Notes under the pieces: model-generated
What the model saw: only the letters and a program-made list of their open reading frames with translations
Databases searched by the model: none
What the model was told of the DNA's origin: nothing
In this document: positions 5,138-38,035 of the stretch, piece by piece
Numbering within the stretch: the stretch's first letter is position 1
Layout of the letters: each line of letters begins with the position of its first letter
Source of the DNA: an uncultured Gammaproteobacteria bacterium
GTDB taxonomy: Bacteria; Patescibacteriota; Patescibacteriia; UBA1558; GWA2-36-10
Direction of reading: 5' to 3'
Length of the DNA: 51,784 nt
NCBI GenBank assembly: GCA_964478385.1
Contig: CAYZIE010000001.1
Coordinates: 1-51,784, forward strand
Program-made: the position numbers and the translations under genes

Positions 5138-6195
5138 TACTCTTTACTTTGTTTTTTTAACTCTTTTTCTAATTCTGTAATCAATGGTAATAATTCACCA
5201 TCCATTATCTTAGGCAAACCATGTAAACTTAATTTTATTCTATGATCAGTTATTCTATCTTGAGGATAATTGTATGTTCTAATTTTTTCACTTCTATCTC
5301 CTGTGCCTATTTGAGTTTTTCTTTCTTCTGCTAATTCTTTATGTTTTTCTTCTTCCATTTTAGCTAATACTCTAGATCTAAGTATTTGCACAGCTTTTAA
5401 CTTATTCTGTCCTTGTGATTTTTCATCTTGGCAAGATACAACTATATTAGTTGGTAAATGAGTTATTCTAACAGCAGAATATGTAGTATTAACTGATTGT
5501 CCTCCATGACCTGAAGCACAGAAAGTATCTATTCTTAAATCTTTATTATCTATTTCTAAATCTATTTCTTCTGCTTCTGGCATTACTGCTACACTAGCCG
5601 CTGAAGTATGTACTCTACCTGATTTTTCTGTTTCTGGTACTCTTTGTACTCTATGTACGCCACTTTCAAATTTAAAATACTTATATACATTTTCTCCTGT
5701 TACTTCAGCAATTATTTCTTTAAATCCACCTATTTCTGTTTTATTACTAGACAATATATTTATTTTAAAGTTCATAGTTTCTGCAAATCTTGAGTACATT
5801 CTGAATAGATTAGCTGCAAATAGAGCAGATTCTTCACCACCTGTACCAGCTCGTATTTCTAAGATTATATCTTTACTATCATTAGGATCTTGAGGATGAA
5901 GTATTTCTTCTAGCTTATTTTCATCTTCTTTTATTTTATCTTCTAAAACTTGTATTTCTTCATTTGTTAATACAATCATTTCTTGATCTTGTTCTTGTGC
6001 TAATGAAGCTTTTAATTTATTACTTTCTTCTGTATTTTTTTCTATATCTTCTACTAATTCTAGAGTATCTTTAGCAATATTATATTCCTTACTAATTTTA
6101 CTCATTTTTTTACTATTAGAAACAGTATCTGGATTTTGCATTTCTTTTTCCAGACTTTGTATTTTTTCTTTTAATTTTTCTTTTTCTTTTTTCAT
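5137..6195 (-). CDS. prfA: Peptide chain release factor 1
   Basis: 352 aa. GGQ motif (SGHGGQSVNTT) and RF1-type PxT tripeptide (RVQRVPETE). Confidence 0.93.
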   Translation of the reverse strand: MKKEKEKLKEKIQSLEKEMQNPDTVSNSKKMSKISKEYNIAKDTLELVEDIEKNTEESNKLKASLAQEQDQEMIVLTNEEIQVLEDKIKEDENKLEEILHPQDPNDSKDIILEIRAGTGGEESALFAANLFRMYSRFAETMNFKINILSSNKTEIGGFKEIIAEVTGENVYKYFKFESGVHRVQRVPETEKSGRVHTSAASVAVMPEAEEIDLEIDNKDLRIDTFCASGHGGQSVNTTYSAVRITHLPTNIVVSCQDEKSQGQNKLKAVQILRSRVLAKMEEEKHKELAEERKTQIGTGDRSEKIRTYNYPQDRITDHRIKLSLHGLPKIMDGELLPLITELEKELKKQSKE

Positions 6196-12901: not shown

Positions 12902-14284
12902 ATGAAAATAGAATTATACAATAGCTTAACTAAGAAAAAAGAGGAGTTTAAGAGTATTGATAAGAATAAAGTAGGATTATATACTTGTGGTCCTACAGTA
13001 TATGATGCTCCACATATTGGTAATATTTTAGCATATATTTACTGGGATGTTTTGAAAAAGTTTTTAATTTCTCAAGGATATGATGTAAATCATATTATGA
13101 ATTTAACTGATGTTGGTCATTTAGTTTCTGATTCTGATGAAGGAGAGGATAAGATGGAGGTTGGTAAAAGAAAGTTTGGTAAAGGTGCTTGGGAATTAGC
13201 TGAACACTATATCAAAGTATTTAAAGATAATCTTAAAGAATTTAATATATCAGAGCCTAGTAAGTTTTTAAGGGCTACTGATACTATTAAAGAACAAATT
13301 GATTTTGTTAAAGTATTAGATAAAAAAGGGTATTTGTATAAGATTAGTGATGGTATGTATTTTGATACTTCTAAGATAGATGATTATGGTGTTTTAGCTA
13401 ATTTACAGAATGTTGATTTAGAAGAAGGTGCTAGAGTAGAAAAGAATAAAGAAAAAAAGAGTAAATATGATTTTGCTGTATGGAAGTTTTCTCCTGAGGA
13501 TAGTAAAAGAGATATGGAGTGGGATTCTCCTTGGGGTAGGGGGTTTCCTGGTTGGCACTTAGAATGTTCTGTAATGAGTAGAATGGAATTAGGAGATACC
13601 TTTGATATACATACTGGTGGTGAAGATCATTTAACAGTGCATCATCCCAATGAAATGGCTCAGAGTAAGGCTGTAACTGATAAATTACAAGCTAATTATT
13701 GGCTACATAATGCTTTTAATAAAGTTGATGGAAAGAAAATGTCTAAATCTGCTGGTAGTTTTGTAACTTTAGAAAACATTAAAGAAAAAGGATATTCTCC
13801 ATTAGCATATAAATTACTTGTTTTACAGAATAATTACAGAAAACCTTTAAATTTTACTTGGAAATCTTTAGAATCTGCACAAAAAGGTTTAATTAACATA
13901 GTCAAGGAAATAGCTTATTATGATAATCCTAAGATAGGTTGCGCAGAATTTGAAAAAGAGTTCTATAAAGCTTTGGGTGATGATTTAAATACTTCTAAAG
14001 CTTTATCTATACTACAAGCTGTAATTGATTCTAATTATCCTAGTGAAGCTAAGTTAGAGACTATTTTAAAAATGGATAAAGTATTAGGTTTAGATTTAGA
14101 TAATTTAAGAAAGAAGATTTTAAATATACCCAAAGAAGCTAAAGAATTATTAAACAAAAGACAAGAAGCTAGAGATAATAAAGATTGGGAGAAATCTGAT
14201 AAATTAAGAGATGAATTAGAATCTTTTGGAGTAGAGGTTAAAGATTCTAAACAAGGTCAAAAAGCAGTTCTATTACAACTGTAA
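12902..14284 (+). CDS. cysS: Cysteinyl-tRNA synthetase
   Basis: HIGH-type motif (APHIGNILAY), KMSKS present, 460 aa. Confidence 0.95.
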   Translation: MKIELYNSLTKKKEEFKSIDKNKVGLYTCGPTVYDAPHIGNILAYIYWDVLKKFLISQGYDVNHIMNLTDVGHLVSDSDEGEDKMEVGKRKFGKGAWELAEHYIKVFKDNLKEFNISEPSKFLRATDTIKEQIDFVKVLDKKGYLYKISDGMYFDTSKIDDYGVLANLQNVDLEEGARVEKNKEKKSKYDFAVWKFSPEDSKRDMEWDSPWGRGFPGWHLECSVMSRMELGDTFDIHTGGEDHLTVHHPNEMAQSKAVTDKLQANYWLHNAFNKVDGKKMSKSAGSFVTLENIKEKGYSPLAYKLLVLQNNYRKPLNFTWKSLESAQKGLINIVKEIAYYDNPKIGCAEFEKEFYKALGDDLNTSKALSILQAVIDSNYPSEAKLETILKMDKVLGLDLDNLRKKILNIPKEAKELLNKRQEARDNKDWEKSDKLRDELESFGVEVKDSKQGQKAVLLQL

Positions 14285-14286
14285 AT

Positions 14287-15087
14287 ATGGTTAATAAAGA
14301 AATTAAGAAAATATATACAGATATAGAAGGTGTGGCTGAAAAAGCTAGACCTTTTAATATTATTTCAGAGGAAAATAATAGTTTAATTATTTTAGTCCAT
14401 GGTTTTACTGGATCACCATATGATATGCATAGTTTAGCTGAATATCTTTTTTCACAAGGTTTTGATATTAATACTATACTTTTAAAAGGACATGGTAGTA
14501 ATTTAGAAAGTTTAAGACAAACTACTTATGTAGATTGGTATACTTCCTTAAAAGAGGTTATACAAGCTAATATTGATAGATATGATAGTATTTTCATTAT
14601 AGGTTATTCATTTGGTGCTAATTTAGGATTTGAAGCTTGTATAAAATTTAATCAAATAAAAGGTATTATTTCTTTAGGAATACCTATTTATTTACAAGAA
14701 GAAAAGTATATTAGATTATTATTACCATTAGCTAGGGTATTTAAAAGAAACTATCGTAAAAAGTGGGTTAATAAAAGACATAAAGATAAATTAAAAGAGT
14801 GTGGTAAACATAGTCATATACCTATTAAAAGTATAGTTAATTTTTATAATTTTATAGATAATCATACAAAAAAGAATATACCTTTAGTTAATACGCCTTC
14901 TTTGATTATTCATGCTCGTAATGATTATATTTCTCATTCTATTTCTTCTGAGTTTATTTTTAAAAATTTAAATACAAAAGATAAAGATTTATTTATTTTA
15001 AACAAAGCTAAACATAGTTTAGCTGAGGGTTCTAGAAAAGATTTTGTGTATAATAAAATATTAGATTTTATTAATTCACATAAATAA
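14287..15087 (+). CDS. Alpha/beta hydrolase (carboxylesterase/lysophospholipase-like)
   Basis: LVHGFTGSP and nucleophile elbow GYSFG. 266 aa. Confidence 0.7.
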   Translation: MVNKEIKKIYTDIEGVAEKARPFNIISEENNSLIILVHGFTGSPYDMHSLAEYLFSQGFDINTILLKGHGSNLESLRQTTYVDWYTSLKEVIQANIDRYDSIFIIGYSFGANLGFEACIKFNQIKGIISLGIPIYLQEEKYIRLLLPLARVFKRNYRKKWVNKRHKDKLKECGKHSHIPIKSIVNFYNFIDNHTKKNIPLVNTPSLIIHARNDYISHSISSEFIFKNLNTKDKDLFILNKAKHSLAEGSRKDFVYNKILDFINSHK

Positions 15088-15123
15088 CTTAAAACTTTCC
15101 TTAATTTATGCTACAATGTAGTT

Positions 15124-15867
15124 ATGATTACAAAGGATGATATAAAATTCTGGGGGCCAAAGTATGGATCTATTTATCCTTACTTAGAAGGTTCTACTCC
15201 TTATCAAAATTTAATTGATGATTTTTTTAATTTTTTAACATTTAACATTAATGATAATATTTTAGATTGTGGAGCAGGATCTGGTTTAATTGTTAAAAGA
15301 ATTCTTGATAATGAAAAATATATAGCTAGTATAGATGCTTTAGATGTTAGTGAAATAATGTTAAGTCATATAAAAGATAAATTAAAAGATTTAGATAATA
15401 ATTTAGAAGATAAGGTGAATTTAATACTTCATGATTTATCATATAAATTAAAAGTAGAAGATGAAAAATATGATAAAATAATATCTAATTTAGTTTTAAC
15501 ATATATTACTACACATGAAGGTGAATTTGGAGAGCAAGCTTTAGAAAAAGTGTTATCTGAAATGTATAGAGTTTTAAAAATAAATGGATCTTTTGTTTGG
15601 TCTACACCAATAAAGGGTGTAAACTTTTTTAAAGTCTTTATTGCTTCTGGTAAAGATATACTTGATTTAAAGAATTATAAAAGACTGTATTATGGTCCTA
15701 TGATATTAAAACATGCTTTAGAAATACAGAAAAAAGGTAAACAGGGTTTATATCATTTTTATGAAAAAGATAAGATAGAAAGTATATTATTAAGAATTGG
15801 TTTTAAAAATATTAAGTTTAAAAAATCTTTTGCTAATCAAGCTTGGGTTATATATTGTGAAAAATGA
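15124..15867 (+). CDS. Class I SAM-dependent methyltransferase
   Basis: Motif I ILDCGAGSGL. 247 aa. The stop overlaps the next start (ATGA). Confidence 0.75.
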   Translation: MITKDDIKFWGPKYGSIYPYLEGSTPYQNLIDDFFNFLTFNINDNILDCGAGSGLIVKRILDNEKYIASIDALDVSEIMLSHIKDKLKDLDNNLEDKVNLILHDLSYKLKVEDEKYDKIISNLVLTYITTHEGEFGEQALEKVLSEMYRVLKINGSFVWSTPIKGVNFFKVFIASGKDILDLKNYKRLYYGPMILKHALEIQKKGKQGLYHFYEKDKIESILLRIGFKNIKFKKSFANQAWVIYCEK

Positions 15868-18644
15868 TTAATATAAATATATTATTATTTATTGTTGGTT
15901 TATTAAATCTATCTTTAGGTTTAATTGTTTGGGTTAAAAATAAAAAATCACCAGTTAATATTTGGTATAGTTTAGTAGTTATTAGTGGCGCTTTATGGAC
16001 TTTTGGTATTTTAGGATTTTTATATATTGATAATTTAGAAATAGCTAAACATTTTGTTCGTTTTTACTATTTAATAGCTGCTCTAATTGCTTATGAGTTT
16101 TTATTTTTTGCTATTTATTTTCCTTTTAAAAGAATAAAAATTAATTTTCTTTTTAGGTTCATAACATTTATACCAGTTTTATTTATTATTTATTTTTTAT
16201 ATTTTACAGATTATCATTTTTCTCAAATCATTTTAATGGATTGGGGTAAGAATGTTATTCTTGGTTCAGCTTATATTTATTATGTTATTTATTTTACTCT
16301 TTATATTGTAGCTTCTTTTATAATTTGGTTAATAAAATATCATAAAGCAGATAAAATAAGTAGATTGAAATTAAAATATGTGTTTATAGGTACTTCTTCC
16401 GCTTTATTATTTGGTTCTTTTTTTAATTTATTTTTACCATTTTTTAATTATAGATATGTTTGGGCTGGACCATTTTTTACTGTTATAATGTTCGGTTTTA
16501 TATTCTACGCTATAATTAAATATCGTTTAATGAATATTCGTTTAGTTATTACACGCAGTATTCTTTATGGTATTTTAGTAGGTGCTGTAGCTAGCTTTTT
16601 TGCTTTATCTGTATTTATAGCTGGTAATTATTTAGGTGCTCATACAAGAACAGGTAAAATTTTAGTATATATTTTTAATAGTATAATTTTAGTATTATTT
16701 TTAGATCCTGTTAAAAAAGTATGGGCTAAAGTTACAGATGCTATATTCTATAAAGATAAGATTAATTATCAAAATGTTTTACAAAAAGCAAGTTCAGTAA
16801 TAGCTGGAGAAATAAATTTAGAATCATTATCATCTGAATTAAGTATATTATTGTCTAAAGAGTTGAAAATAAAGAATATATCAATTGTTGTACTTGTTAA
16901 TAATCATTTACATTATATTAATGGTTCTTCTAAGAAAATTAATCTGTCTAAAGAAAGTATAGATTATTTAAATAAGTGTAAAGATATTATTATTTTGGAA
17001 GAATTAATAATGAAAAGGGGGGAGCATTCTGATTGGGAAGATTTGGAAAGAGATAAACTTGATAGATTTATTGATGAAGCAGAAAAAAATAAAGCAGAAA
17101 TGTATATTCCTGTTATTGAAGATAATAAATTAAACTCTATACTAATAATATCATCTAAGAATTCAGGTGATTTATATAGTGAAGAAGATATTAATTTTTT
17201 TAAAGTTTTAGTTCCTCAAATTGCTACTTCCATAGAAAAATCTAAACTATATGAAGAGGTAGAACAATTAAATATAGAATTACAATCTAAGGTTAAAGAA
17301 AAAACAAAGAGTTTGAAATATGCTAATATTGGTCTAGAAAAACGTAATAAATTTCTTTCTGGTATGCAGAGTATAATTAATAAATTAAGTCGCATACTTG
17401 ATTTAAATAAAGGAATTCAGTTAGTTGTTGATAGTATTTCTTCTGAATTAGGATATGTTGGTGGTGTTTTAAGTTTTGTTAATAAAGATAGGGAAACCTT
17501 TTCTGCTGTAGCTTTAACAGAAAATAAAATTACTAAACCAGTTATACAATTATTAAAAAAAGATCCAAAGAGTTTTGTTGCTCAATTGGATAATAAATAT
17601 AATTTAGGTGCTAAGGTTATTTTAGATAATCAAATGCACTCTTCTCCTAAAATGTCTGATTTTTTCTGTCCTCCTGTTGATAATAATATAATTAATCAAA
17701 TACAATCAAATTTAAACATTCAAACAATTATAGGTGTGCCAATTGTTTCTGAGGGTAAAGTAATTGGTTTGATACACTATCTTTTGAAAGAGAAAAAAGA
17801 TAATATTTCTTCTTTAGATATTGAAACAATGATATCTTTAGCTGATCAAGTTGGTATTATTTATCGTAATTTAAGATTATATGATAATTTACAAACAATT
17901 AATAAAGAATTACAAGAAGCTAATGTTAATTTAAGAACCCTTGATAAAACTAAATCAGAATTTCTATCAATAGCTTCTCATCAATTACGTACTCCTGTTT
18001 CCGCTATAAAAGGTTACCTTTCTATGATTATGGATGGAGATTTTGGTAAAGTTTCTATAAAACTTAAAAAAGTAATTAATGATTTATTTGATTCTTCTTC
18101 TCGTTTAGCTAGATTGATAGATATATTTTTAAATGTATCTCGTATTGAATCAGGACGTTTAAAGTTAGATAAACAACCATTAGATATTGATCCTTTGATT
18201 AAAAGTGTTGTTTCAGAATTAAGTAATCAAGCTAATAGTAAAAAACTTAAATTAGAATATACTCAATCTTGTAAAAAACTACCTTTAATCTTAGCAGATA
18301 GTGATAAAATAAGAGATGTACTCCTTAATTTAGTAGATAATGCTATTAAATATACACAAAAAGGTAAAATAACACTTACAGTAACATGTTCAAGAAAGAT
18401 ATTAAATTTTCAGGTTAAAGATACTGGTATAGGTATAGATCCTAGTGAGGTTAAAACATTATTTAGAAAATTTGTTAGAGGTAGTGGTGTATCTCAAGTT
18501 CATACAGGTGGTTCTGGATTAGGATTATTTATTGCTCAAAAGATAATTAAAGAACATGGTGGTAAGATTTGGGCAGAAAGTAAAGGTGGAGGAAAGGGTA
18601 GTTTGTTTCAATTTACTTTACCAGTCTATACAGAAAATAAATAA
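15864..18644 (+). CDS. Orphan sensor histidine kinase (multi-TM N-terminal domain, GAF-like regions, HisKA, HATPase_c)
   Basis: 926 aa with about 7 N-terminal TM segments. H-box FLSIASHQLRTPVSAIKG, N box LLNLVDNAIKYT, and G boxes DTGIGI / GGSGLGL. No response regulator in the window. Confidence 0.88.
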   Translation: MININILLFIVGLLNLSLGLIVWVKNKKSPVNIWYSLVVISGALWTFGILGFLYIDNLEIAKHFVRFYYLIAALIAYEFLFFAIYFPFKRIKINFLFRFITFIPVLFIIYFLYFTDYHFSQIILMDWGKNVILGSAYIYYVIYFTLYIVASFIIWLIKYHKADKISRLKLKYVFIGTSSALLFGSFFNLFLPFFNYRYVWAGPFFTVIMFGFIFYAIIKYRLMNIRLVITRSILYGILVGAVASFFALSVFIAGNYLGAHTRTGKILVYIFNSIILVLFLDPVKKVWAKVTDAIFYKDKINYQNVLQKASSVIAGEINLESLSSELSILLSKELKIKNISIVVLVNNHLHYINGSSKKINLSKESIDYLNKCKDIIILEELIMKRGEHSDWEDLERDKLDRFIDEAEKNKAEMYIPVIEDNKLNSILIISSKNSGDLYSEEDINFFKVLVPQIATSIEKSKLYEEVEQLNIELQSKVKEKTKSLKYANIGLEKRNKFLSGMQSIINKLSRILDLNKGIQLVVDSISSELGYVGGVLSFVNKDRETFSAVALTENKITKPVIQLLKKDPKSFVAQLDNKYNLGAKVILDNQMHSSPKMSDFFCPPVDNNIINQIQSNLNIQTIIGVPIVSEGKVIGLIHYLLKEKKDNISSLDIETMISLADQVGIIYRNLRLYDNLQTINKELQEANVNLRTLDKTKSEFLSIASHQLRTPVSAIKGYLSMIMDGDFGKVSIKLKKVINDLFDSSSRLARLIDIFLNVSRIESGRLKLDKQPLDIDPLIKSVVSELSNQANSKKLKLEYTQSCKKLPLILADSDKIRDVLLNLVDNAIKYTQKGKITLTVTCSRKILNFQVKDTGIGIDPSEVKTLFRKFVRGSGVSQVHTGGSGLGLFIAQKIIKEHGGKIWAESKGGGKGSLFQFTLPVYTENK

Positions 18645-18890
18645 AAAAAGACCCCCATTAATCTTTATTGTTGTCATTAAGATGTTTTGCTGACTAACAG
18701 GGGTCTAGGAAGCAGATTATCTCTGCTTATTTGGTTTGGCCGCAATGAGTAGTTAAAGGTTATCCGGTCTCCACTTGATATAACTGGCTAAGATCGTCAT
18801 CTTAGGCGTTACTATCATGACTCAGAAGCTATGACGCCATAGCTGTCCCAGTAACTATTATGTCTCAAAGCGACCAATTTTAATGTTCGG
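18643..18890 (-). ncRNA. Unclassified structured small RNA gene (about 245 nt) with its own promoter and terminator
   Basis: GC-rich block in an AT-rich intergenic region with no ORF. In plus coordinates, a long-range helix pairs 18852-18877 with 18736-18755. There are 7-bp hairpins at 18827-18844, 18788-18805 and 18710-18728. A terminal stem AGACCCC/GGGGTCT plus U7 lies at 18643-18706. Confidence 0.6.
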
Positions 18891-18896
18891 AATAAT

Positions 18897-18925
18897 ATTG
18901 TATTGTATATTAAAAACATTGTCAA
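18897..18925 (-). promoter_or_regulatory. Near-consensus sigma70 promoter for the small RNA (TTGACA-17-TACAAT)
   Basis: On the minus strand, TTGACA is at 18925-18920, the spacer is 17 nt, and TACAAT is at 18902-18897. Confidence 0.65.
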
Positions 18926-18997
18926 GTCTTTTTTATTACCAGTCTAATCCTTTATTTCCTAATTTAAAAGTGGTATAATAGTTATATAAATAATAAT

Positions 18998-19369
18998 ATG
19001 AAAACATTACATTCATTTATCTTTTTTATTATAATCTTCTGTATAATAGCAGGAATTATATTCTTAATGAACAAAAAGGGCGCTGGTTTAACTCAAAGCT
19101 TAGGTCAAACTTTAGAGTGTGAAGTTAATAAAATATCTTCTTCTATTTTAGAATTAGATAAGGATATAAACTCCATCTCTGCTTTTATTAGTTTTAATAA
19201 AATTCCTTTAGAAGATAGTTTTAAATTAACATTAGATAATTTAGGTATTAGTATAAAAGATAATACTTGGTTATTTGATTATGTTATGTCTGATATTCCT
19301 AAAGATAGTTTATGTCCTTTAATAGAATTAGATAATGTTAAGTTAGTATTTATACCAACAAAAAAGTAA
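18998..19369 (+). CDS. Small membrane-anchored protein, unknown function
   Basis: 123 aa with N-terminal TM segment FIFFIIIFCIIAGIIFL. Extended -10 TGGTATAAT at 18971-18979. Lies 3 nt upstream of pgk. Confidence 0.55.
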   Translation: MKTLHSFIFFIIIFCIIAGIIFLMNKKGAGLTQSLGQTLECEVNKISSSILELDKDINSISAFISFNKIPLEDSFKLTLDNLGISIKDNTWLFDYVMSDIPKDSLCPLIELDNVKLVFIPTKK

Positions 19370-19372
19370 AAT

Positions 19373-20524
19373 ATGAAATTAAAAAGTATAAAAGAAATTA
19401 AGTCTTTAAAGGGTAAAAGAGTATTATTACGTTTAGATTTAAATATTCCTTTGGATAATAATATTAATAAAAAAAATGCTTGGAGAATAGAAAGATCTTT
19501 AAGTACCATACAATATTTAGTTAAGAAAAAAGCTAAGATTATAATAATATCTCATTTGGGTAGACCAAAAGGAAGAGATAATAAATTATCACTATTACCA
19601 ATATCACAATATTTAAGTAAATTATTAAAAAAAGATATTGAGTTTTGGTCTGATGATTTCAAAGGATATTATCAAGATAGTTTAAAATTATCTAATGGTA
19701 GTATAGCTATGTTGGAGAATATTCGTTTCTATGACAGAGAAGAAAAGAATTGTAAAAGACTAGCTAAATCTTTAAGTAAATTAGGTGATATATATATTAA
19801 TGATGCTTTTTCTGTATGTCATCGTAAACATTCTTCTGTTTTAAGTATAACAGAATATTTACCAAGTTATGCTGGATTATTACTCTTAGAAGAAGTAAAA
19901 GTGTTAGCTAAAGTATTACAAACTAAAAAAGGATTATCTATAATCTTAGGTGGGGCTAAAACTAAAACCAAACTTCCTTTAATTAAAAAATTTATTACAA
20001 AAGCAGATAATATACTATTAGGAGGTAAATTAGCTGTTACTTTTTTAAAAGCTAGAGGATATAGCATTGATAAAGCTGTTTATGATAAAGAAAGTGTATC
20101 TTTAGTTAAGAATTTGAAAAATAAAATATATATTCCTTTAGATGTAGTAATTGCTAAGAGTTTTAAGAGTAAAAAAAGTAAAACTGTTTTAATAGATAAT
20201 ATACAATCTGATGTTTTAGCTTTAGATATTGGTAAAAAAACAGTTAAAGAATATATTAATATTTTAAAAAGATCTAAAATAATAGTTTGGAATGGACCAT
20301 TGGGATATTTTGAGAATAATATTTTTAGCAAAGGTTCTAAAGATTTATTAAAATCTTTAAGTAAAACAAATTCTAAGATTATAGTAGGAGGAGGGGAAAC
20401 AGTGTCTTTAGTAAAACAAATGAATTTAGATAATAAACTATACCATATATCTACTGGTGGTGGCGCTATGTTATATTTTCTTCAAGGTAGTAAGTTATTA
20501 GCTTTAGAAAAGTTAAAAAAGTAA
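19373..20524 (+). CDS. pgk: Phosphoglycerate kinase
   Basis: GKRVLLRLDLNIP start, ISHLGRPKG, and STGGGAML C-terminal motif. Confidence 0.92.
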   Translation: MKLKSIKEIKSLKGKRVLLRLDLNIPLDNNINKKNAWRIERSLSTIQYLVKKKAKIIIISHLGRPKGRDNKLSLLPISQYLSKLLKKDIEFWSDDFKGYYQDSLKLSNGSIAMLENIRFYDREEKNCKRLAKSLSKLGDIYINDAFSVCHRKHSSVLSITEYLPSYAGLLLLEEVKVLAKVLQTKKGLSIILGGAKTKTKLPLIKKFITKADNILLGGKLAVTFLKARGYSIDKAVYDKESVSLVKNLKNKIYIPLDVVIAKSFKSKKSKTVLIDNIQSDVLALDIGKKTVKEYINILKRSKIIVWNGPLGYFENNIFSKGSKDLLKSLSKTNSKIIVGGGETVSLVKQMNLDNKLYHISTGGGAMLYFLQGSKLLALEKLKK

Positions 20525-20525
20525 T

Positions 20526-21797
20526 ATGCCGTATAAAATAAAAGAAATAAAAGCTTCGGAAATATTAGACTCTAGAGGAGATCCTACTCTTAAGGTTGAT
20601 ATAACTCTTGGTAATGGCGTTACTGATAGTGCTTCTGTGCCTTCTGGGGCCTCTACAGGACGTTTTGAAGCTTTTGAATTAAGAGATGATGATTTACTTA
20701 GATATAATGGTAAGGGTGTTTTAAAAGCAGTAGATAATGTAAATAATATTATTAATAAAGAATTAAATGGGCTACAAGTTACAGATCAAGAAAAGATAGA
20801 TAAGTTGATGGTAGAATTAGATAATACAAAGAATAAGAGTAGATTAGGTGCTAATGCTATATTAGGTGTATCTTTAGCATTAGCTCATACAGCTAGTAAA
20901 GCTTTAGATATTCCTTTATATGAATATTTACGTAATTTATATAATCCTAAATTGAAAGATTTTAATCTACCCATACCTTTAGTTAATGTTATAAACGGAG
21001 GTAGACATGCTAGTACTAATATTAATATTCAAGAGTTTTGGATAATACCAATTAAAGCTAAAACATTTAAAGAAAAATTAAGACAGGTTAGTGAAATATT
21101 TCATCAATTAGGTAAATTATTAACAGGTATAGGTTTAGATACTGATCTGGGTAATGAAGGTGGTTATGCTCCTAATCTTAAATCACATAGTCAAGCTTTT
21201 GATTTAATTACTCAAGCAGTAGAAAGTTGTAAGTATAAAGTAGGTGAAGATATTATTTTTGGTATTGATGTTGGTGCTTCAGAATTATATAGTCTAGATG
21301 ATAATAATTATCTTTTTAGTTTAGAGGATAAATCTTTTTCTTCAGATGAGTTAATAGACTATTATTTAGAATTAATTAATACTTATCCTTTAAAGTTTTT
21401 AGAAGATCCTTTTGATCAAGAAGATTGGAAAGCTTGGGAGAACTTTACTAAAGATGATTATATAAAAAATAATGATATTAATATTATAGGAGATGATTTA
21501 TTTGTTACTAATATACAAAGATTACAAAAAGGAATTGATTTAGGTGTAGCTAATACTATTTTAATAAAACCTAATCAAATAGGTACTTTAACTGAAACAT
21601 TTAAAGCTATTCATTTAGCACAAGATAATAATTATGATATAATTATTTCTCATCGTAGTGGAGAAACATCAGATACAACTATTGCTGATTTAGCTGTAGC
21701 AGTAAATGCTCAGTATATTAAAACAGGTTCTACAGCTAGGGGTGAAAGAATAGTTAAGTATAATAGATTATTAAATATTGAAGAAAAATTAAATTAA
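20526..21797 (+). CDS. eno: Enolase
   Basis: EILDSRGDPT, SVPSGASTG, IKPNQIGTLTET and SHRSGETSDTTIADLAVA. Confidence 0.96.
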   Translation: MPYKIKEIKASEILDSRGDPTLKVDITLGNGVTDSASVPSGASTGRFEAFELRDDDLLRYNGKGVLKAVDNVNNIINKELNGLQVTDQEKIDKLMVELDNTKNKSRLGANAILGVSLALAHTASKALDIPLYEYLRNLYNPKLKDFNLPIPLVNVINGGRHASTNINIQEFWIIPIKAKTFKEKLRQVSEIFHQLGKLLTGIGLDTDLGNEGGYAPNLKSHSQAFDLITQAVESCKYKVGEDIIFGIDVGASELYSLDDNNYLFSLEDKSFSSDELIDYYLELINTYPLKFLEDPFDQEDWKAWENFTKDDYIKNNDINIIGDDLFVTNIQRLQKGIDLGVANTILIKPNQIGTLTETFKAIHLAQDNNYDIIISHRSGETSDTTIADLAVAVNAQYIKTGSTARGERIVKYNRLLNIEEKLN

Positions 21798-21798
21798 T

Positions 21799-23349
21799 AT
21801 GAATAATATACCATTAGTTTTAATTATTTTAGATGGTTGGGGGATAAGCAAGGAAAGTAAGGGTAATGCTATATTCTTAGCTAAAACTCCTGTAGTTGAT
21901 AATATATGTAAAAAGTATTCTCATACTCATTTGCACGCTTCTGGCCATTATGTTGGTTTACCAGATGGACAACCAGGTAATTCTGAAGCTGGTCATATGA
22001 ATATTGGTGCTGGTAGAGTAATCCCTCAAGATTCTATTATAATAAACAAAAGTATTAAGAATAGTACTTTTTTTAAGAATCCAGCTTTTTTACAAACAGC
22101 ACAACATATTACTGATAATAATTCGGATATTCATTTAATGGGATTATTATCAGAAAATCAAAGTCCTCATTCAGATAATGATCATATAGTAGCTTTAATT
22201 GATTTTTTTACTAATAATAGTAAACAAAATATCTATCTTCATTTATTTACAGATGGTCGTGATAGTCCTATGTTTTCAGCTTTAAAAACTTTAGATAAGT
22301 ATAAAAAAGTTTTTGATAATAAAAGAGTTAAGATAGCTAGTATAATGGGTCGTTTCTATGCTATGGACAGAAAAAGAGATTGGCAAAGAACTAAATTAAC
22401 TTATGAAGCTATGACAGAAGGAAAGGGAGTAACAGTTACTAATGGTATAGAAGCTGTTAATCAAGCATACAACAGGGGAGAGAGTGATGAATTTATACTA
22501 CCAACAGTTATAGTTGATAAGAATAAAAAACCAATTGGTCCAATAAATGATAATGATGCTATAGTATTCTTTAATTTAAGATCGGATAGAGCTAGACAAT
22601 TGAGTAAAACTTTTGTACAGAAAAATTTTGAAAAAGATAATAAAGATTCTTTTAAAAGAAAAAAGAAAGTTAAAAATTTATTCTTTACTGCTTTAACTGA
22701 TTTTGGCACAGACTTAGGTCATATTTTAACAGCTTATCCAGCTATAGATATACCAGAATCTTTAACTTCTTGTTTAAAAGAATATAGACAATTATATATT
22801 GCTGAATCAGAAAAGTATTCTCATGTTACTTATTTCTTTAACGGGGGTTATGATCAACCAGTAGTAAAAGAAGAAAGAATATCTATTCCTTCTAAAAATA
22901 TTAGTACTTATGATCAAAAACCAAGTATGAGTGTTAAATTAGTTACTAATAAAGTAATTAAAGCTATACAAGATAAAAAATTTGATTTTATAACCCTAAA
23001 CTATGCTAGTCCTGATATGATAGGTCATACTGGTAATATTGAAGCAGCTATTAAAGCTATTGAAATAGTAGATAAAGAAATTGGTAAAATTATTTCTGAA
23101 GTATCTAAAAGAAATGGTACTGTTATAATAACAGCTGATCATGGAAATGTTGAAGAAATGATTAATAATGAAACAGGAGAAGTTATTACAAAACACTCTA
23201 CTAATTTAGTCCCTTTTGCTATAATAAATAAACATAAATATAAATTAGGAAAAATAGGTAAACTAGCTGATATAGCTCCAACTATATTAGATATTCTAGA
23301 TATAAAAAAGCCTAAATCAATGACAGGTAAATCTTTAATTAAAAAATAA
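21799..23349 (+). CDS. gpmI: 2,3-bisphosphoglycerate-independent phosphoglycerate mutase, paralogue 1
   Basis: LDGWG, GNSEAGH (catalytic Ser), DGRD, RFYAMDRKRDW, EKYSHVTYFFNGG, PDMIGHTG and TADHGN. The usual SDGGVHS segment is replaced by SENQSPHS. Confidence 0.85.
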   Translation: MNNIPLVLIILDGWGISKESKGNAIFLAKTPVVDNICKKYSHTHLHASGHYVGLPDGQPGNSEAGHMNIGAGRVIPQDSIIINKSIKNSTFFKNPAFLQTAQHITDNNSDIHLMGLLSENQSPHSDNDHIVALIDFFTNNSKQNIYLHLFTDGRDSPMFSALKTLDKYKKVFDNKRVKIASIMGRFYAMDRKRDWQRTKLTYEAMTEGKGVTVTNGIEAVNQAYNRGESDEFILPTVIVDKNKKPIGPINDNDAIVFFNLRSDRARQLSKTFVQKNFEKDNKDSFKRKKKVKNLFFTALTDFGTDLGHILTAYPAIDIPESLTSCLKEYRQLYIAESEKYSHVTYFFNGGYDQPVVKEERISIPSKNISTYDQKPSMSVKLVTNKVIKAIQDKKFDFITLNYASPDMIGHTGNIEAAIKAIEIVDKEIGKIISEVSKRNGTVIITADHGNVEEMINNETGEVITKHSTNLVPFAIINKHKYKLGKIGKLADIAPTILDILDIKKPKSMTGKSLIKK

Positions 23350-24927
23350 ATGAATAGACCTAAACCAGTTGTATTAATAGTATTAGATGGGTTTGGCATT
23401 GCTCCTTCTTCAAGAGCTAATGCTATTTCTTTGGCTAAAACACCAAACTTTGATAAATATGCTTCTAATTATCCTATTATGCCTTTATCAGCGAGTGGTG
23501 AAGCTGTTGGTTTACCATGGGGAGAAATGGGTAACTCTCAAGTTGGTCATCTTTCTTTAGGATCAGGATTAATACCATATCAATACTTACCTAGAATTAC
23601 TAAATCTATTATTGAAAAAGATTTTTTTAAGAATGAAGCATTATTAAAAGCATGTAATCATGTAAAAGAAAAAAATAGTGCTTTACATATTATTGGTTTA
23701 GTTAGTGATGGAGGCATTCATAGTTATAATGAACATTTATACTCAATATTAGAATTAGTTAAAAAAGAAAAAATAGAAAAAGTATATATTCATGCTTTTT
23801 TAGATGGTAGAGATACTATATACAATGGAGGATTAAAATATATTTCTAAATTACAAGATAAGATAAAGCAAATAGGCATTGGTAGTATAGCTAGTTTAGC
23901 TGGTCGTTTTTATGCTATGGATAGAGATCATAATTGGGATAGAACAGAATTAGCATACAATGCATTAATAAAAGGTGAGTCTAAGGAGAAGTATAAAGAT
24001 CCATTAAAAGCTGTACAAAAATCTTATGATAGTTCAGTATATGATGAACAATTATTACCTGTAGTTATTACTGATGATAATAATAATCCTAAAGGTATTA
24101 TACAAGATAATGATTCTGTTGTATTTTTTAATTTCAGAGCAGATAGAGCTAGACAATTAACAAAAGCATTGTCAGTACCTGGTTTTGAAAAGTTTGAACA
24201 AAAGTATTATAAAAACTTACTAATGGTTACTATGACAGAGTATGAAAAAGATTTACCTGTTACAGTAGCATTTAAACCACTATCAATAGAAGTTCCTTTA
24301 GCTAAAGTAATATCTGATGCTGGTTTAAAACAATTACATATTTCTGAAACTAATAAATATGCTCATGTTACTTATTTCTTTAATGGAGGAAAAGAAACTA
24401 TTTTTGAAGGAGAAGATAGGGTATTAGTGCCATCTCCTAGTATTCCTTCTTTTGATCAAAAACCAGCTATGTCTGCTCGTGAGACTACAGCTAAAACAAT
24501 TCAGTTTATAAAAGAAGGGTTATATGATTTTATAGTGATAAATTATGCTAATCCAGATATGGTTGGTCATACTGGTAATATTAAAGCTACTATTAAAGCT
24601 ATAGAAATACTTGATCAATTAGTAGGAGAATTAGTTGATACAACGCTATCTTATGACGGAGTTGTTTTAATTACAGCTGATCATGGAAATGCTGAAAAGA
24701 TGTATGATTTACAAACTGGAGTAATAGATAAAGAACATACTAATAATCCTGTTCCTTTATTTATAGTAGGGCAACAATTTGCTGGAAAAAGTGTTTTAAC
24801 AGGTGTGTCTGGTACTGATTTAAGTAATATTACTCCTTTTGGAGTTTTATCAGATGTAGCTCCAACTATTTTAAAAATAATTGGATTAAAAAAACCACCT
24901 AGTATGACTGGTAGTTCTTTGGTTTAA
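23350..24927 (+). CDS. gpmI: 2,3-bisphosphoglycerate-independent phosphoglycerate mutase, paralogue 2
   Basis: LDGFG, GNSQVGH, SDGGIHS, DGRD, RFYAMDRDHNW, NKYAHVTYFFNGG, PDMVGHTG and TADHGN. Confidence 0.9.
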   Translation: MNRPKPVVLIVLDGFGIAPSSRANAISLAKTPNFDKYASNYPIMPLSASGEAVGLPWGEMGNSQVGHLSLGSGLIPYQYLPRITKSIIEKDFFKNEALLKACNHVKEKNSALHIIGLVSDGGIHSYNEHLYSILELVKKEKIEKVYIHAFLDGRDTIYNGGLKYISKLQDKIKQIGIGSIASLAGRFYAMDRDHNWDRTELAYNALIKGESKEKYKDPLKAVQKSYDSSVYDEQLLPVVITDDNNNPKGIIQDNDSVVFFNFRADRARQLTKALSVPGFEKFEQKYYKNLLMVTMTEYEKDLPVTVAFKPLSIEVPLAKVISDAGLKQLHISETNKYAHVTYFFNGGKETIFEGEDRVLVPSPSIPSFDQKPAMSARETTAKTIQFIKEGLYDFIVINYANPDMVGHTGNIKATIKAIEILDQLVGELVDTTLSYDGVVLITADHGNAEKMYDLQTGVIDKEHTNNPVPLFIVGQQFAGKSVLTGVSGTDLSNITPFGVLSDVAPTILKIIGLKKPPSMTGSSLV

Positions 24928-25356
24928 TTACCAAATATTAATTAAAGTTATTGTTAAAATACTACTAAGAATAATACCAACAATAACTTCTATATTTCTA
25001 TGTCCAAATCTTTCGTTTAATACAGGAAATTTATATTCTTTTTTATCAGGTAGTTCTTTTATAAGTTGATTTAATATTTTTCCATGATTTCCTAATTGTA
25101 ATCTTATCCCAGAAGCATCTCTAATAATTAATATAGCTAAGATAATAGTAATAGCAAATTCAGAAGATTGTATTCCATTATAATAACCCATAACAATAGT
25201 TAAAGAAGTAACTATAGAAGCATGACTAGAAGGCATTCCTCCATAACTTAACATTGAAGGCCATTTAAACTCTCCTTTAACAACTTCAACAATTAACTTG
25301 ATAATTTGATTAATTAACATTACTATTATAGGTATAGCAAATAATTGATATTGCAT
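24928..25356 (-). CDS. Divergent PAP2 / DUF212 (YuiD-like) membrane protein
   Basis: 142 aa. YGGMPSSHASIVTSL signature of the acid phosphatase/vanadium-haloperoxidase-related family. Confidence 0.75.
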   Translation of the reverse strand: MQYQLFAIPIIVMLINQIIKLIVEVVKGEFKWPSMLSYGGMPSSHASIVTSLTIVMGYYNGIQSSEFAITIILAILIIRDASGIRLQLGNHGKILNQLIKELPDKKEYKFPVLNERFGHRNIEVIVGIILSSILTITLINIW

Positions 25357-37511: not shown

Positions 37512-37514
37512 AAG

Positions 37515-37546
37515 AAAACCCCCAGTAGACGAATCTAGTGGGGGTT
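37515..37546. terminator. Bidirectional terminator (P-loop kinase gene / 112-aa gene)
   Basis: CCCCCAGTAG (37519-37528) pairs with CTAGTGGGGG (37535-37544) with one mismatch. The A-run before it gives a U-run on the minus strand. Confidence 0.7.
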
Positions 37547-37550
37547 GTAG

Positions 37551-37889
37551 TTACGAGGTGCAGTGGAGTTCAATCTGCTTCTGCAGATCGGAGATCGCTC
37601 CCTGGTCGTCCAGGCTATCAATCTCTTCCAGAACCATGTTCAGGTCACTCACAGGCTTTGCGAAGGCAAACGTGTTACAATCCATCACCGTGAAACTCAC
37701 AAGGCACCACGCGTTGTTGAGAGCACGCTTCGTGTCCTTCGGCCAGTCACGATGTGGGAATATGAACATCCCTTCGTGATTAGCCACGTAGCGCACCTGA
37801 CCATCCTTGAGCTGCCTCTTGAAAAACAGCAACTCGATGACAGTCGTGATCTGATCCCGTTCTTCGTTCTTGTTCTTGGGCTCAGACAT
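37551..37889 (-). CDS. 112-aa soluble protein of unknown function, foreign composition (about 52% G+C)
   Basis: AGGAGG at 37896-37901 lies 6 nt before the ATG. Third codon positions are G/C-rich and Lys is almost always AAG, unlike the rest of the window. No TM segment and no family recognised. Confidence 0.7.
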   Translation of the reverse strand: MSEPKNKNEERDQITTVIELLFFKRQLKDGQVRYVANHEGMFIFPHRDWPKDTKRALNNAWCLVSFTVMDCNTFAFAKPVSDLNMVLEEIDSLDDQGAISDLQKQIELHCTS

Positions 37890-37986: not shown

Positions 37987-38026
37987 AAAAGAAAAGCCCC
38001 TTACTATGTAAATGGTTAAGGGGCTT
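37987..38026 (-). terminator. Intrinsic terminator of the 155-aa gene
   Basis: AAGCCCCTTA (37994-38003) pairs with TAAGGGGCTT (38017-38026). A U-run follows on the minus strand. Confidence 0.7.
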
Positions 38027-38035
38027 GTGAGAAGG

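Follow-up and report, generated by a model that had tools for sequence, protein, structure and literature searches.

Genes and signals at the locus

The window analysed here, a stretch of 51,784 nucleotides covering positions 1 to 51,784 of contig CAYZIE010000001.1, contains a 353-nt gap between the gene of a 7TM-GAF-HisKA-HATPase histidine kinase (15864-18644, plus strand) and an operon that includes glycolytic genes. This gap holds a minus-strand candidate gene for a structured non-coding RNA (ncRNA) of about 245 nt, convergent with the kinase gene on one side and divergent from the operon on the other. A preliminary description, made from the letters of the window, had drawn attention to the raised G+C content of the gap, the lack of a credible open reading frame (ORF), and a promoter and terminator that would delimit an independently transcribed RNA.

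The G+C content of the gap is raised, as the preliminary description had noted: across 18650-18850 it is 0.41-0.44, against 0.16-0.30 in the flanks (100-nt windows), and the 150-nt peak of 0.453 lies at the 99.4th percentile of the whole stretch, which averages 0.264. A sigma-70-type promoter occupies 18925-18897 (minus strand), with the -35 box TTGACA at 18925-18920, a spacer of 17 nt and the -10 box TACAAT at 18902-18897. It is indeed present where it had been proposed, agrees with the consensus at 11 of 12 positions and is the top-scoring promoter-like site in the 1 kb scanned. The RNA is found in three sequence versions, which are compared below: the window type, L016 and the L010 type. 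TTGACA and the 17-nt spacer are kept in all three, while the -10 box reads TACAAT in the window type, TAGAAT in L016 and TAATAT in L010 and L092. From this box it is exactly 8 nt in each version to GAACAUUA (18888-18881), an octanucleotide identical in all three and single-stranded in the fold, which probably forms the 5' end of the transcript, judging from its position relative to the promoter.

The opposite end of the gene is marked by an intrinsic terminator (18706-18643), again as described before, with a 15-bp stem in the minimum free energy (MFE) fold (18706-18692 with 18663-18649), a 28-nt loop and seven U residues. It reaches the stop codon of the kinase gene (18642-18644), which it abuts, with its U-tract, in every version. 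Because promoter geometry, the spacing of GAACAUUA and the terminator with its U-tract are kept in all three versions, these signals point to an independent transcription unit.

No coding function could be assigned to this unit. All ORFs overlapping the region are at most 36 aa long, and the sole AUG-started one (21 aa, 18818-18753) was rejected as a coding product, its start codon being missing in the L010 version; a conserved ORF was looked for across the versions and not found. The absence of a credible ORF had thus been judged correctly.

Predicted fold of the RNA

The MFE fold of 18643-18890 (minus strand) has an energy of -77.8 kcal/mol with a z-score of -5.76, and none of 200 shuffled sequences folds as well; the z-scores of the other two versions are -8.4 and -4.1. 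All helices that had been traced by hand in the preliminary description are reproduced, namely a long-range helix (18877-18848 with 18759-18736), two 7-bp hairpins with tetraloops (18844-18827 and 18805-18788) and the hairpin AAGCAGA/UCUGCUU (18728-18710), followed by the terminator (18706-18649) and the U-tract. In the predicted architecture, the closing helix P1, which is long and interrupted, opens into a three-way junction bearing the hairpin P2 and the arm P3; on the 3' side come an A-rich linker, an invariant hairpin and finally the terminator.

P1 consists of four segments with about 20 bp (22 pairs counted) and is interrupted by a bulge of 6-8 nt. Its 5' strand (18877-18848) is made up of P1a UUGGUCGC, P1b UGAG, a 6-nt bulge, P1c UAGUUA and P1d GG, and its 3' strand (18759-18736) reads CC..UAACUA CUCA..GCGGCCAA. 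Two invariant junction strands adjoin this helix: GAC in J1/2 (18847-18845) and UAA in J3/1 (18762-18760), the latter inside the conserved block GAUAACC. Together they may resemble the UAA/GAN loop motif. P2, AGCUAUG-GCGU-CAUAGCU (18844-18827), is a 7-bp hairpin with a tetraloop, found in both the MFE fold and the pair counts. The P3 arm (18826-18763) is built from P3a (18826-18819 with 18769-18763), P3b (18817-18813 with 18780-18776) and a variable distal hairpin (18812-18781) that contains CUAAGAU-GACG-AUCUUAG. At its base P3 is conserved; distally, L010 has 19 nt more and no alignment is possible. The longest conserved block, CAAACCAAAWAAGCAGA, corresponds to the linker ACCAAAU and the invariant hairpin AAGCAGA-GAUAA-UCUGCUU (18735-18710). 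A pseudoknot or alternative fold, suggested earlier from the complementarity of CGUCAU with AUGACG and of GGCGU with ACGCC, did not withstand comparison, as L016 retains only a weakened complement and L010 none.

Base pairing is maintained among three versions

In public data the RNA is known in three sequence versions only. Identical window-type copies are present in loci L001-L009, and the L016 RNA is 84% identical to them. The L010 type (L010-L015, L080 and L092, the last two with an RNA identical to that of L010) is too diverged for BLASTN and is alignable through conserved blocks. All three occupy the same gap in the same orientation and originate from groundwater and marine metagenomes, the contigs with an identical locus being from groundwater. 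The two further versions, in which the helices are kept, were reached through the proteins encoded next to the RNA gene.

The versions were combined in a structural alignment (A4) that was built by hand, with gaps entered as N so that MAFFT held the register, and on which the pairs were counted. A4 contains 75 pairs; 99.5% of its 204 cells are paired and 21 pairs carry compensatory double changes, distributed over P1 (6), P2 (4), P3a (1), P3b (3) and the terminator (7), so that 14 lie outside the terminator. In P1, 100% of the cells are paired. None of 500 shuffles reaches A4 in any of five measures, and in controls in which the 3' partners were slid by 1-3 columns only 28-47% of the cells were paired, with 0-4 double changes. 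The cleanest case is P2, whose invariant flanks are exactly 15 nt apart: from the window type to L010, six of the seven pairs change and all seven remain paired, four with double changes and two with G-C/G-U type changes in L010. A4 also includes 15 G·U cells, and since the same cells would be A·C mismatches on the plus strand, the RNA is read from the minus strand. The maintenance of pairs by compensatory substitutions that characterizes structured ncRNAs is therefore found here, on three sequences with a hand-fitted alignment.

In the alignable core, the window type and L010 agree at 88 of 134 positions (0.66), and the four-fold degenerate sites of the genes for phosphoglycerate kinase (PGK), enolase and the histidine kinase are 0.63-0.76 identical between the same two. 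Hence, the sequence drifts approximately neutrally while the pairing is preserved. The blocks conserved across the versions, GAACAUUA, GGGACAG, UUCURAGU, GAUAACC and CAAACCAAAWAAGCAGA, are only moderately unexpected at such divergence.

Just upstream of the -35 box of the L010 type, we observed a perfect 26-nt palindrome, ATCTTTAGCTAATATTAGCTAAAGAT (L010 2819-2844, corresponding to L092 ~6085-6110), which is absent from the window and could be an operator site.

Comparison with known RNA classes

Neither the window nor any of five related loci gave a match with Rfam 15 at gathering score. For the three versions of the RNA themselves, no family matched at E<0.05, and at E<=10 nothing consistent emerged, the chance matches scoring far below the cut-offs (MicX with 19 bits at a cut-off of 75, the PyrG leader with 31 at a cut-off of 65). 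The outcome of the Rfam comparison that had been recommended is thus the same for each version. ARAGORN predicts three tRNAs in the window and no transfer-messenger RNA (tmRNA).

The individual classes were also considered by structure and genomic context. For RNase P RNA of type A or B, the window, L015 and L016 all lacked a model match, whether at gathering score or at E<=10, and the predicted fold is without a P4-type long-range pseudoknot core; as to presence, the RNA is absent from the syntenic site in L086-L089, a comparison that covers the DNA of the locus. For tmRNA, there is neither an Rfam match nor a tRNA-like end in the fold. Signal recognition particle (SRP) RNA, 4.5S or large, likewise shows no Rfam match, and the loops GCGU, GACG and GAUAA include none of the GNRA type. 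No match was obtained for 6S RNA, and both the MFE and the comparative fold give a three-way junction, not a rod with a central bubble. None of the aptamer families in Rfam 15 matches at E<=10, and the terminator faces the 3' end of a convergent gene rather than the start of a gene to be controlled as by a riboswitch. Omega RNA/HEARO, bridge RNA, retron ncRNA and tracrRNA find no Rfam match and no adjoining gene for TnpB, IscB, an IS110 recombinase, a reverse transcriptase or a Cas protein, the neighbours being alike in all loci; no transposase, reverse transcriptase or Cas gene is among the genes in window positions 12902-25356 or the called genes of the related loci. A hammerhead-like or TPP-like appearance of CUGAGU / GGAUAA was rejected, as the G is lost in L010 (CUAAGU) and neither family gave a model match. 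Searches of the literature likewise brought up no account of an RNA of this kind from Patescibacteria.

It is hardly credible, in our view, that a highly diverged housekeeping RNA (RNase P RNA, SRP RNA, 6S RNA or tmRNA) has escaped the Rfam models. A strong promoter, high G+C content and a stable fold would suit such an RNA, and the lineage is known for divergent sequences. Against this stand the lack of any match at E<0.05 in all three versions, the negative ARAGORN result and a three-way junction in place of a rod with central bubble, a P4 pseudoknot core, a GNRA-capped helix 8 or a tRNA-like end. In addition, no copy was found in the nearest relatives within the 6.5-11 kb of syntenic DNA surrounding the locus. 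The earlier statement that the RNA fits none of the standard housekeeping classes is borne out by the empty Rfam and ARAGORN searches and by this absence.

Distribution in related genomes

All named homologues of the histidine kinase and of PGK are from Patescibacteria or Parcubacteria. The next-closest genomes, L086-L089 (63-66% PGK identity), keep the gene order CysS, hydrolase, methyltransferase, kinase, 123-aa gene, PGK, enolase, two copies of cofactor-independent phosphoglycerate mutase (iPGM) and DUF212. Being absent from the syntenic site in these nearest relatives, the RNA appears to be clade-restricted and not housekeeping. Relatives further removed again possess a gap, which has the operon's promoter motif (TTTCC..TGNTATAAT) in common with the window and otherwise differs in content.

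No further version was detected by other routes. The junction pattern GGGACAG..TTCTRAGT..GATAACC had one match in viral contigs and 32 in metagenome contigs, from a collection without the known L010 and L016 contigs. All of these are chance matches in unrelated, mostly G+C-richer sequence, scoring at most 25 bits with the covariance model compared with more than 105 bits for true copies. A pattern for the 3' module matched 33 times in GTDB representative genomes, where only the L080 match is real, and twice in viral contigs, both times within coding sequence; one match, L070, was rejected as a plain terminator hairpin. A synteny walk via homologues of the histidine kinase and PGK added no RNA version. 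With nhmmer and covariance model R1, neither a paralogue in the window nor a further copy in relatives was found in ~0.6 Mb (window and related loci), and BLASTN matches to phages and plasmids were confined to the A+T-rich promoter. As judged from these searches, the RNA is restricted to a very small clade of Parcubacteria (Patescibacteria).

The L080 copy is located at 2139-2406 of CAYMZA010000002.1, carries an L010-type RNA with an identical score and comes from a GTDB representative titled 'uncultured Gammaproteobacteria bacterium'. This title is probably wrong, because every named relative of the proteins at this locus belongs to Patescibacteria.

Such a restricted distribution could also be that of a relic or cargo of an inserted element that has no function for the host. 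In L086-L089 the kinase stop codon is just 3-18 nt from the start codon of the 123-aa gene, leaving no gap and no RNA, and distant relatives hold other small transcription units in the gap. In the window, moreover, two copies of an 11-nt direct repeat, TTACCAGTCTA (18618-18628 and 18936-18946, plus strand), bracket the RNA gene. The significance of this repeat is doubtful, as L016 and L010 lack its upstream copy, and it may reflect chance or a rearrangement scar. Nor does the RNA have a second copy in the window or related loci, and no match to it was obtained from phages, plasmids or viral contigs. L018 and L019 share the gap and the operon promoter, so that both look ancestral, and pairing has been maintained through many substitutions. 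We therefore regard an inserted element without host function as very unlikely.

Two of the other occupants of the gap region were inspected. In L018 (6870-7130, minus strand), the place of the RNA between the kinase gene and the PGK operon is taken by a 26-aa ORF (MMFMIPLANLPYGGAYPNWDCSYCYA) together with a promoter and a terminator; the ORF could encode a small secreted or modified peptide. In L017 (6780-7205, minus strand), a TTGACG-17-TATAAT promoter lies downstream of the orthologous kinase gene and beside an integrase gene. Two G+C-rich, hairpin-rich stretches are seen there, one of ~135 nt that ends in a terminator and one of ~170 nt with a long-range helix, without an Rfam match at gathering score.

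Neighbouring genes and possible overlap with the kinase transcript

The divergent operon encodes a 123-aa membrane protein without a Pfam match, PGK, enolase and two copies of iPGM. Its promoter region (18950-18997, plus strand) features the extended -10 element TGGTATAAT at 18971-18979, a motif shared with the distant relatives L018 and L019. The tandem iPGM genes, both full-length (516 and 525 aa), follow the enolase gene at 21799-24927, and the duplication is retained in L086, L087 and L089.

Elsewhere in the window, a G+C peak of 0.54 at 37.5-37.9 kb was considered as a second RNA and rejected, as it is a protein-coding gene. The 112-aa ORF at this position (37551-37889, minus strand) has an AGGAGG ribosome-binding site and ~54% G+C in a genome of 26% G+C, and is bracketed by terminator-like hairpins (37512-37545 and 37995-38030), with no Rfam RNA there. 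It was probably acquired horizontally.

On the kinase side, the arrangement of terminators bears on how the RNA might act. Read on the plus strand, the hairpin 18710-18728 is followed by the U-rich sequence UUAUUUGGUUUG (AUUUGGUUUG), and this is the only terminator-like site that the scan reported after the kinase gene (18710-18740). Its L010 counterpart is followed by UUUUUUGGUUUG, while the terminator hairpin of the small RNA has no U-tail in this direction. The invariant hairpin may hence serve as the terminator of the kinase gene on the plus strand, in which case the 3' untranslated region of the kinase mRNA would be antisense to the last ~95 nt of the small RNA.

This overlap leads to the main rival mechanism, in which the RNA is a cis-antisense partner of the kinase mRNA, and duplex formation or polymerase collision over ~95 nt couples the levels of the two transcripts. 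The kinase transcript meets no U-tailed hairpin before 18710-18740, nowhere is the locus more conserved than in this block, and the convergent layout is present in all three versions. However, antisense action leaves the conserved three-way-junction domain of ~150 nt upstream unexplained, the overlap is confined to the terminator hairpins, and there are close relatives that have the kinase and not the RNA. We consider a cis-antisense role unlikely.

The same orientation would permit a riboswitch-like sensor, with the junction domain binding a ligand and thereby controlling read-through of the terminator and antisense transcription into the kinase gene. Invariant junction nucleotides and a peripheral stem of variable length give the domain the look of an aptamer, and the next gene downstream is oriented antisense. 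P1, though, is long and stable, no conserved anti-terminator pairing is apparent (on inspection, the candidate alternatives differ between the window type and L010) and no Rfam riboswitch matches, which leaves such a sensor a quite remote prospect.

Proposed role of the RNA

Taken together, we slightly favour the view that the locus contains a genuine, clade-restricted gene for a structured ncRNA of ~245 nt in a small group of Parcubacteria, and that its product is a stable RNA acting in trans. A sigma-70 promoter of its own, close to consensus, would drive transcription on the minus strand, which probably begins at GAACAUUA and would end at the strong intrinsic terminator beside the kinase stop codon. 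The resulting RNA would be stable and abundantly made, and would engage a protein or another partner in trans through its conserved junction and hairpin, rather than act by long antisense pairing. A trans-acting, probably protein-binding RNA is our best guess, because P1 is long and closed, the promoter near consensus and the terminator strong, and because invariant junction strands lie beside freely covarying stems while a conserved anti-terminator is missing. With a stable P1 of ~20 bp and a strong terminator, the RNA looks more like a stable molecule acting in trans than like a leader that switches. The central proposal of the preliminary description, an independently transcribed structured RNA of ~245 nt, gains support from the kept promoter and terminator and from the compensatory changes, with transcription itself deduced from these signals.

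Several observations weigh against this view. Transcription is read from sequence signals, the conserved promoter and terminator. Overall conservation is no higher than at synonymous sites, so that the conserved blocks are no more than suggestive, and the most conserved of these, 18710-18740, could owe its conservation to terminating the kinase transcript on the other strand. The three distinct sequences effectively represent two lineages, too few for significance of the R-scape type, and were fitted to the structure by hand. L086-L089 manage without the gap and the RNA. Finally, no partner protein or target was found, and duplex energies with the translation start regions of the 47 ORFs in the window were unremarkable.

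The last result also bears on a base-pairing regulatory small RNA whose seed, GAACAUUA or the A-rich linker, would pair with mRNAs from other parts of the genome. The 5' leader is unpaired, conserved and at a fixed distance from the promoter, and a stand-alone promoter and terminator are typical of trans-encoded small RNAs. Nevertheless, no convincing target emerged among the 47 translation start regions, which represent ~50 kb of the genome (best leader energy -7.4 kcal/mol), and a large structured domain is unusual for the seed type. Such regulation by base pairing appears rather improbable.

Relation to known systems and significance

With trans-encoded bacterial small RNA genes, the present gene shares the stand-alone intergenic unit, the sigma-70 promoter, the intrinsic terminator, the lack of an ORF and the conserved unpaired 5' end. 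Its ~245-nt product with a closed junction domain of ~150 nt is, however, larger and more structured than the seed type. The raiA motif RNA, OLE and ROOL resemble it as G+C-rich folded intergenic blocks in A+T-rich genomes with conserved junction nucleotides and a variable peripheral stem, but no covariance model matches the present RNA, which is much smaller than OLE or ROOL and known in three sequence versions as opposed to hundreds of species. 6S RNA is likewise a promoter-driven stable RNA of ~200 nt with a long helix that closes its 5' and 3' parts, and a similarly high abundance is predicted here. In contrast to 6S RNA, the present RNA is no rod with a large central bubble, does not match RF00013, and has no copy in the syntenic DNA of the nearest relatives, whereas 6S RNA is widespread.

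Antisense RNAs can be controlled by riboswitches, for example AspocR by a B12 riboswitch in Listeria. There, too, a structured domain and a terminator are aimed in antisense direction at a neighbouring regulatory gene; the present RNA differs in lacking a known aptamer class and a conserved anti-terminator, and in its very stable P1. The RNA represents a new orphan family and not a new kind of system.

A bolder reading would make it the founding member of a new class of structured RNAs of the candidate phyla radiation (CPR), with a three-way junction recognizing one particular protein or small molecule and functionally tied to the locus for the kinase and glycolysis. We regard this as improbable. 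If true, the RNA might gate antisense or 3'-overlap control of the kinase, and homologues in other lineages would be too diverged for scans with sequence patterns.

For now, the practical value of the finding is limited, since the family is tiny and its function only proposed. At the level of the locus, differing small units occupy a single intergenic position, that between the kinase gene and the glycolytic operon: the RNA in the clade of the window, the gene of a 26-aa peptide in one relative and another structured element in a further one. Patescibacteria have very small genomes, and to our knowledge almost no regulatory RNAs have been described in them. As its near-consensus promoter and its fold are kept while the sequence drifts, the 245-nt RNA represents a concrete candidate for lineage-specific RNA biology in these uncultivated bacteria.

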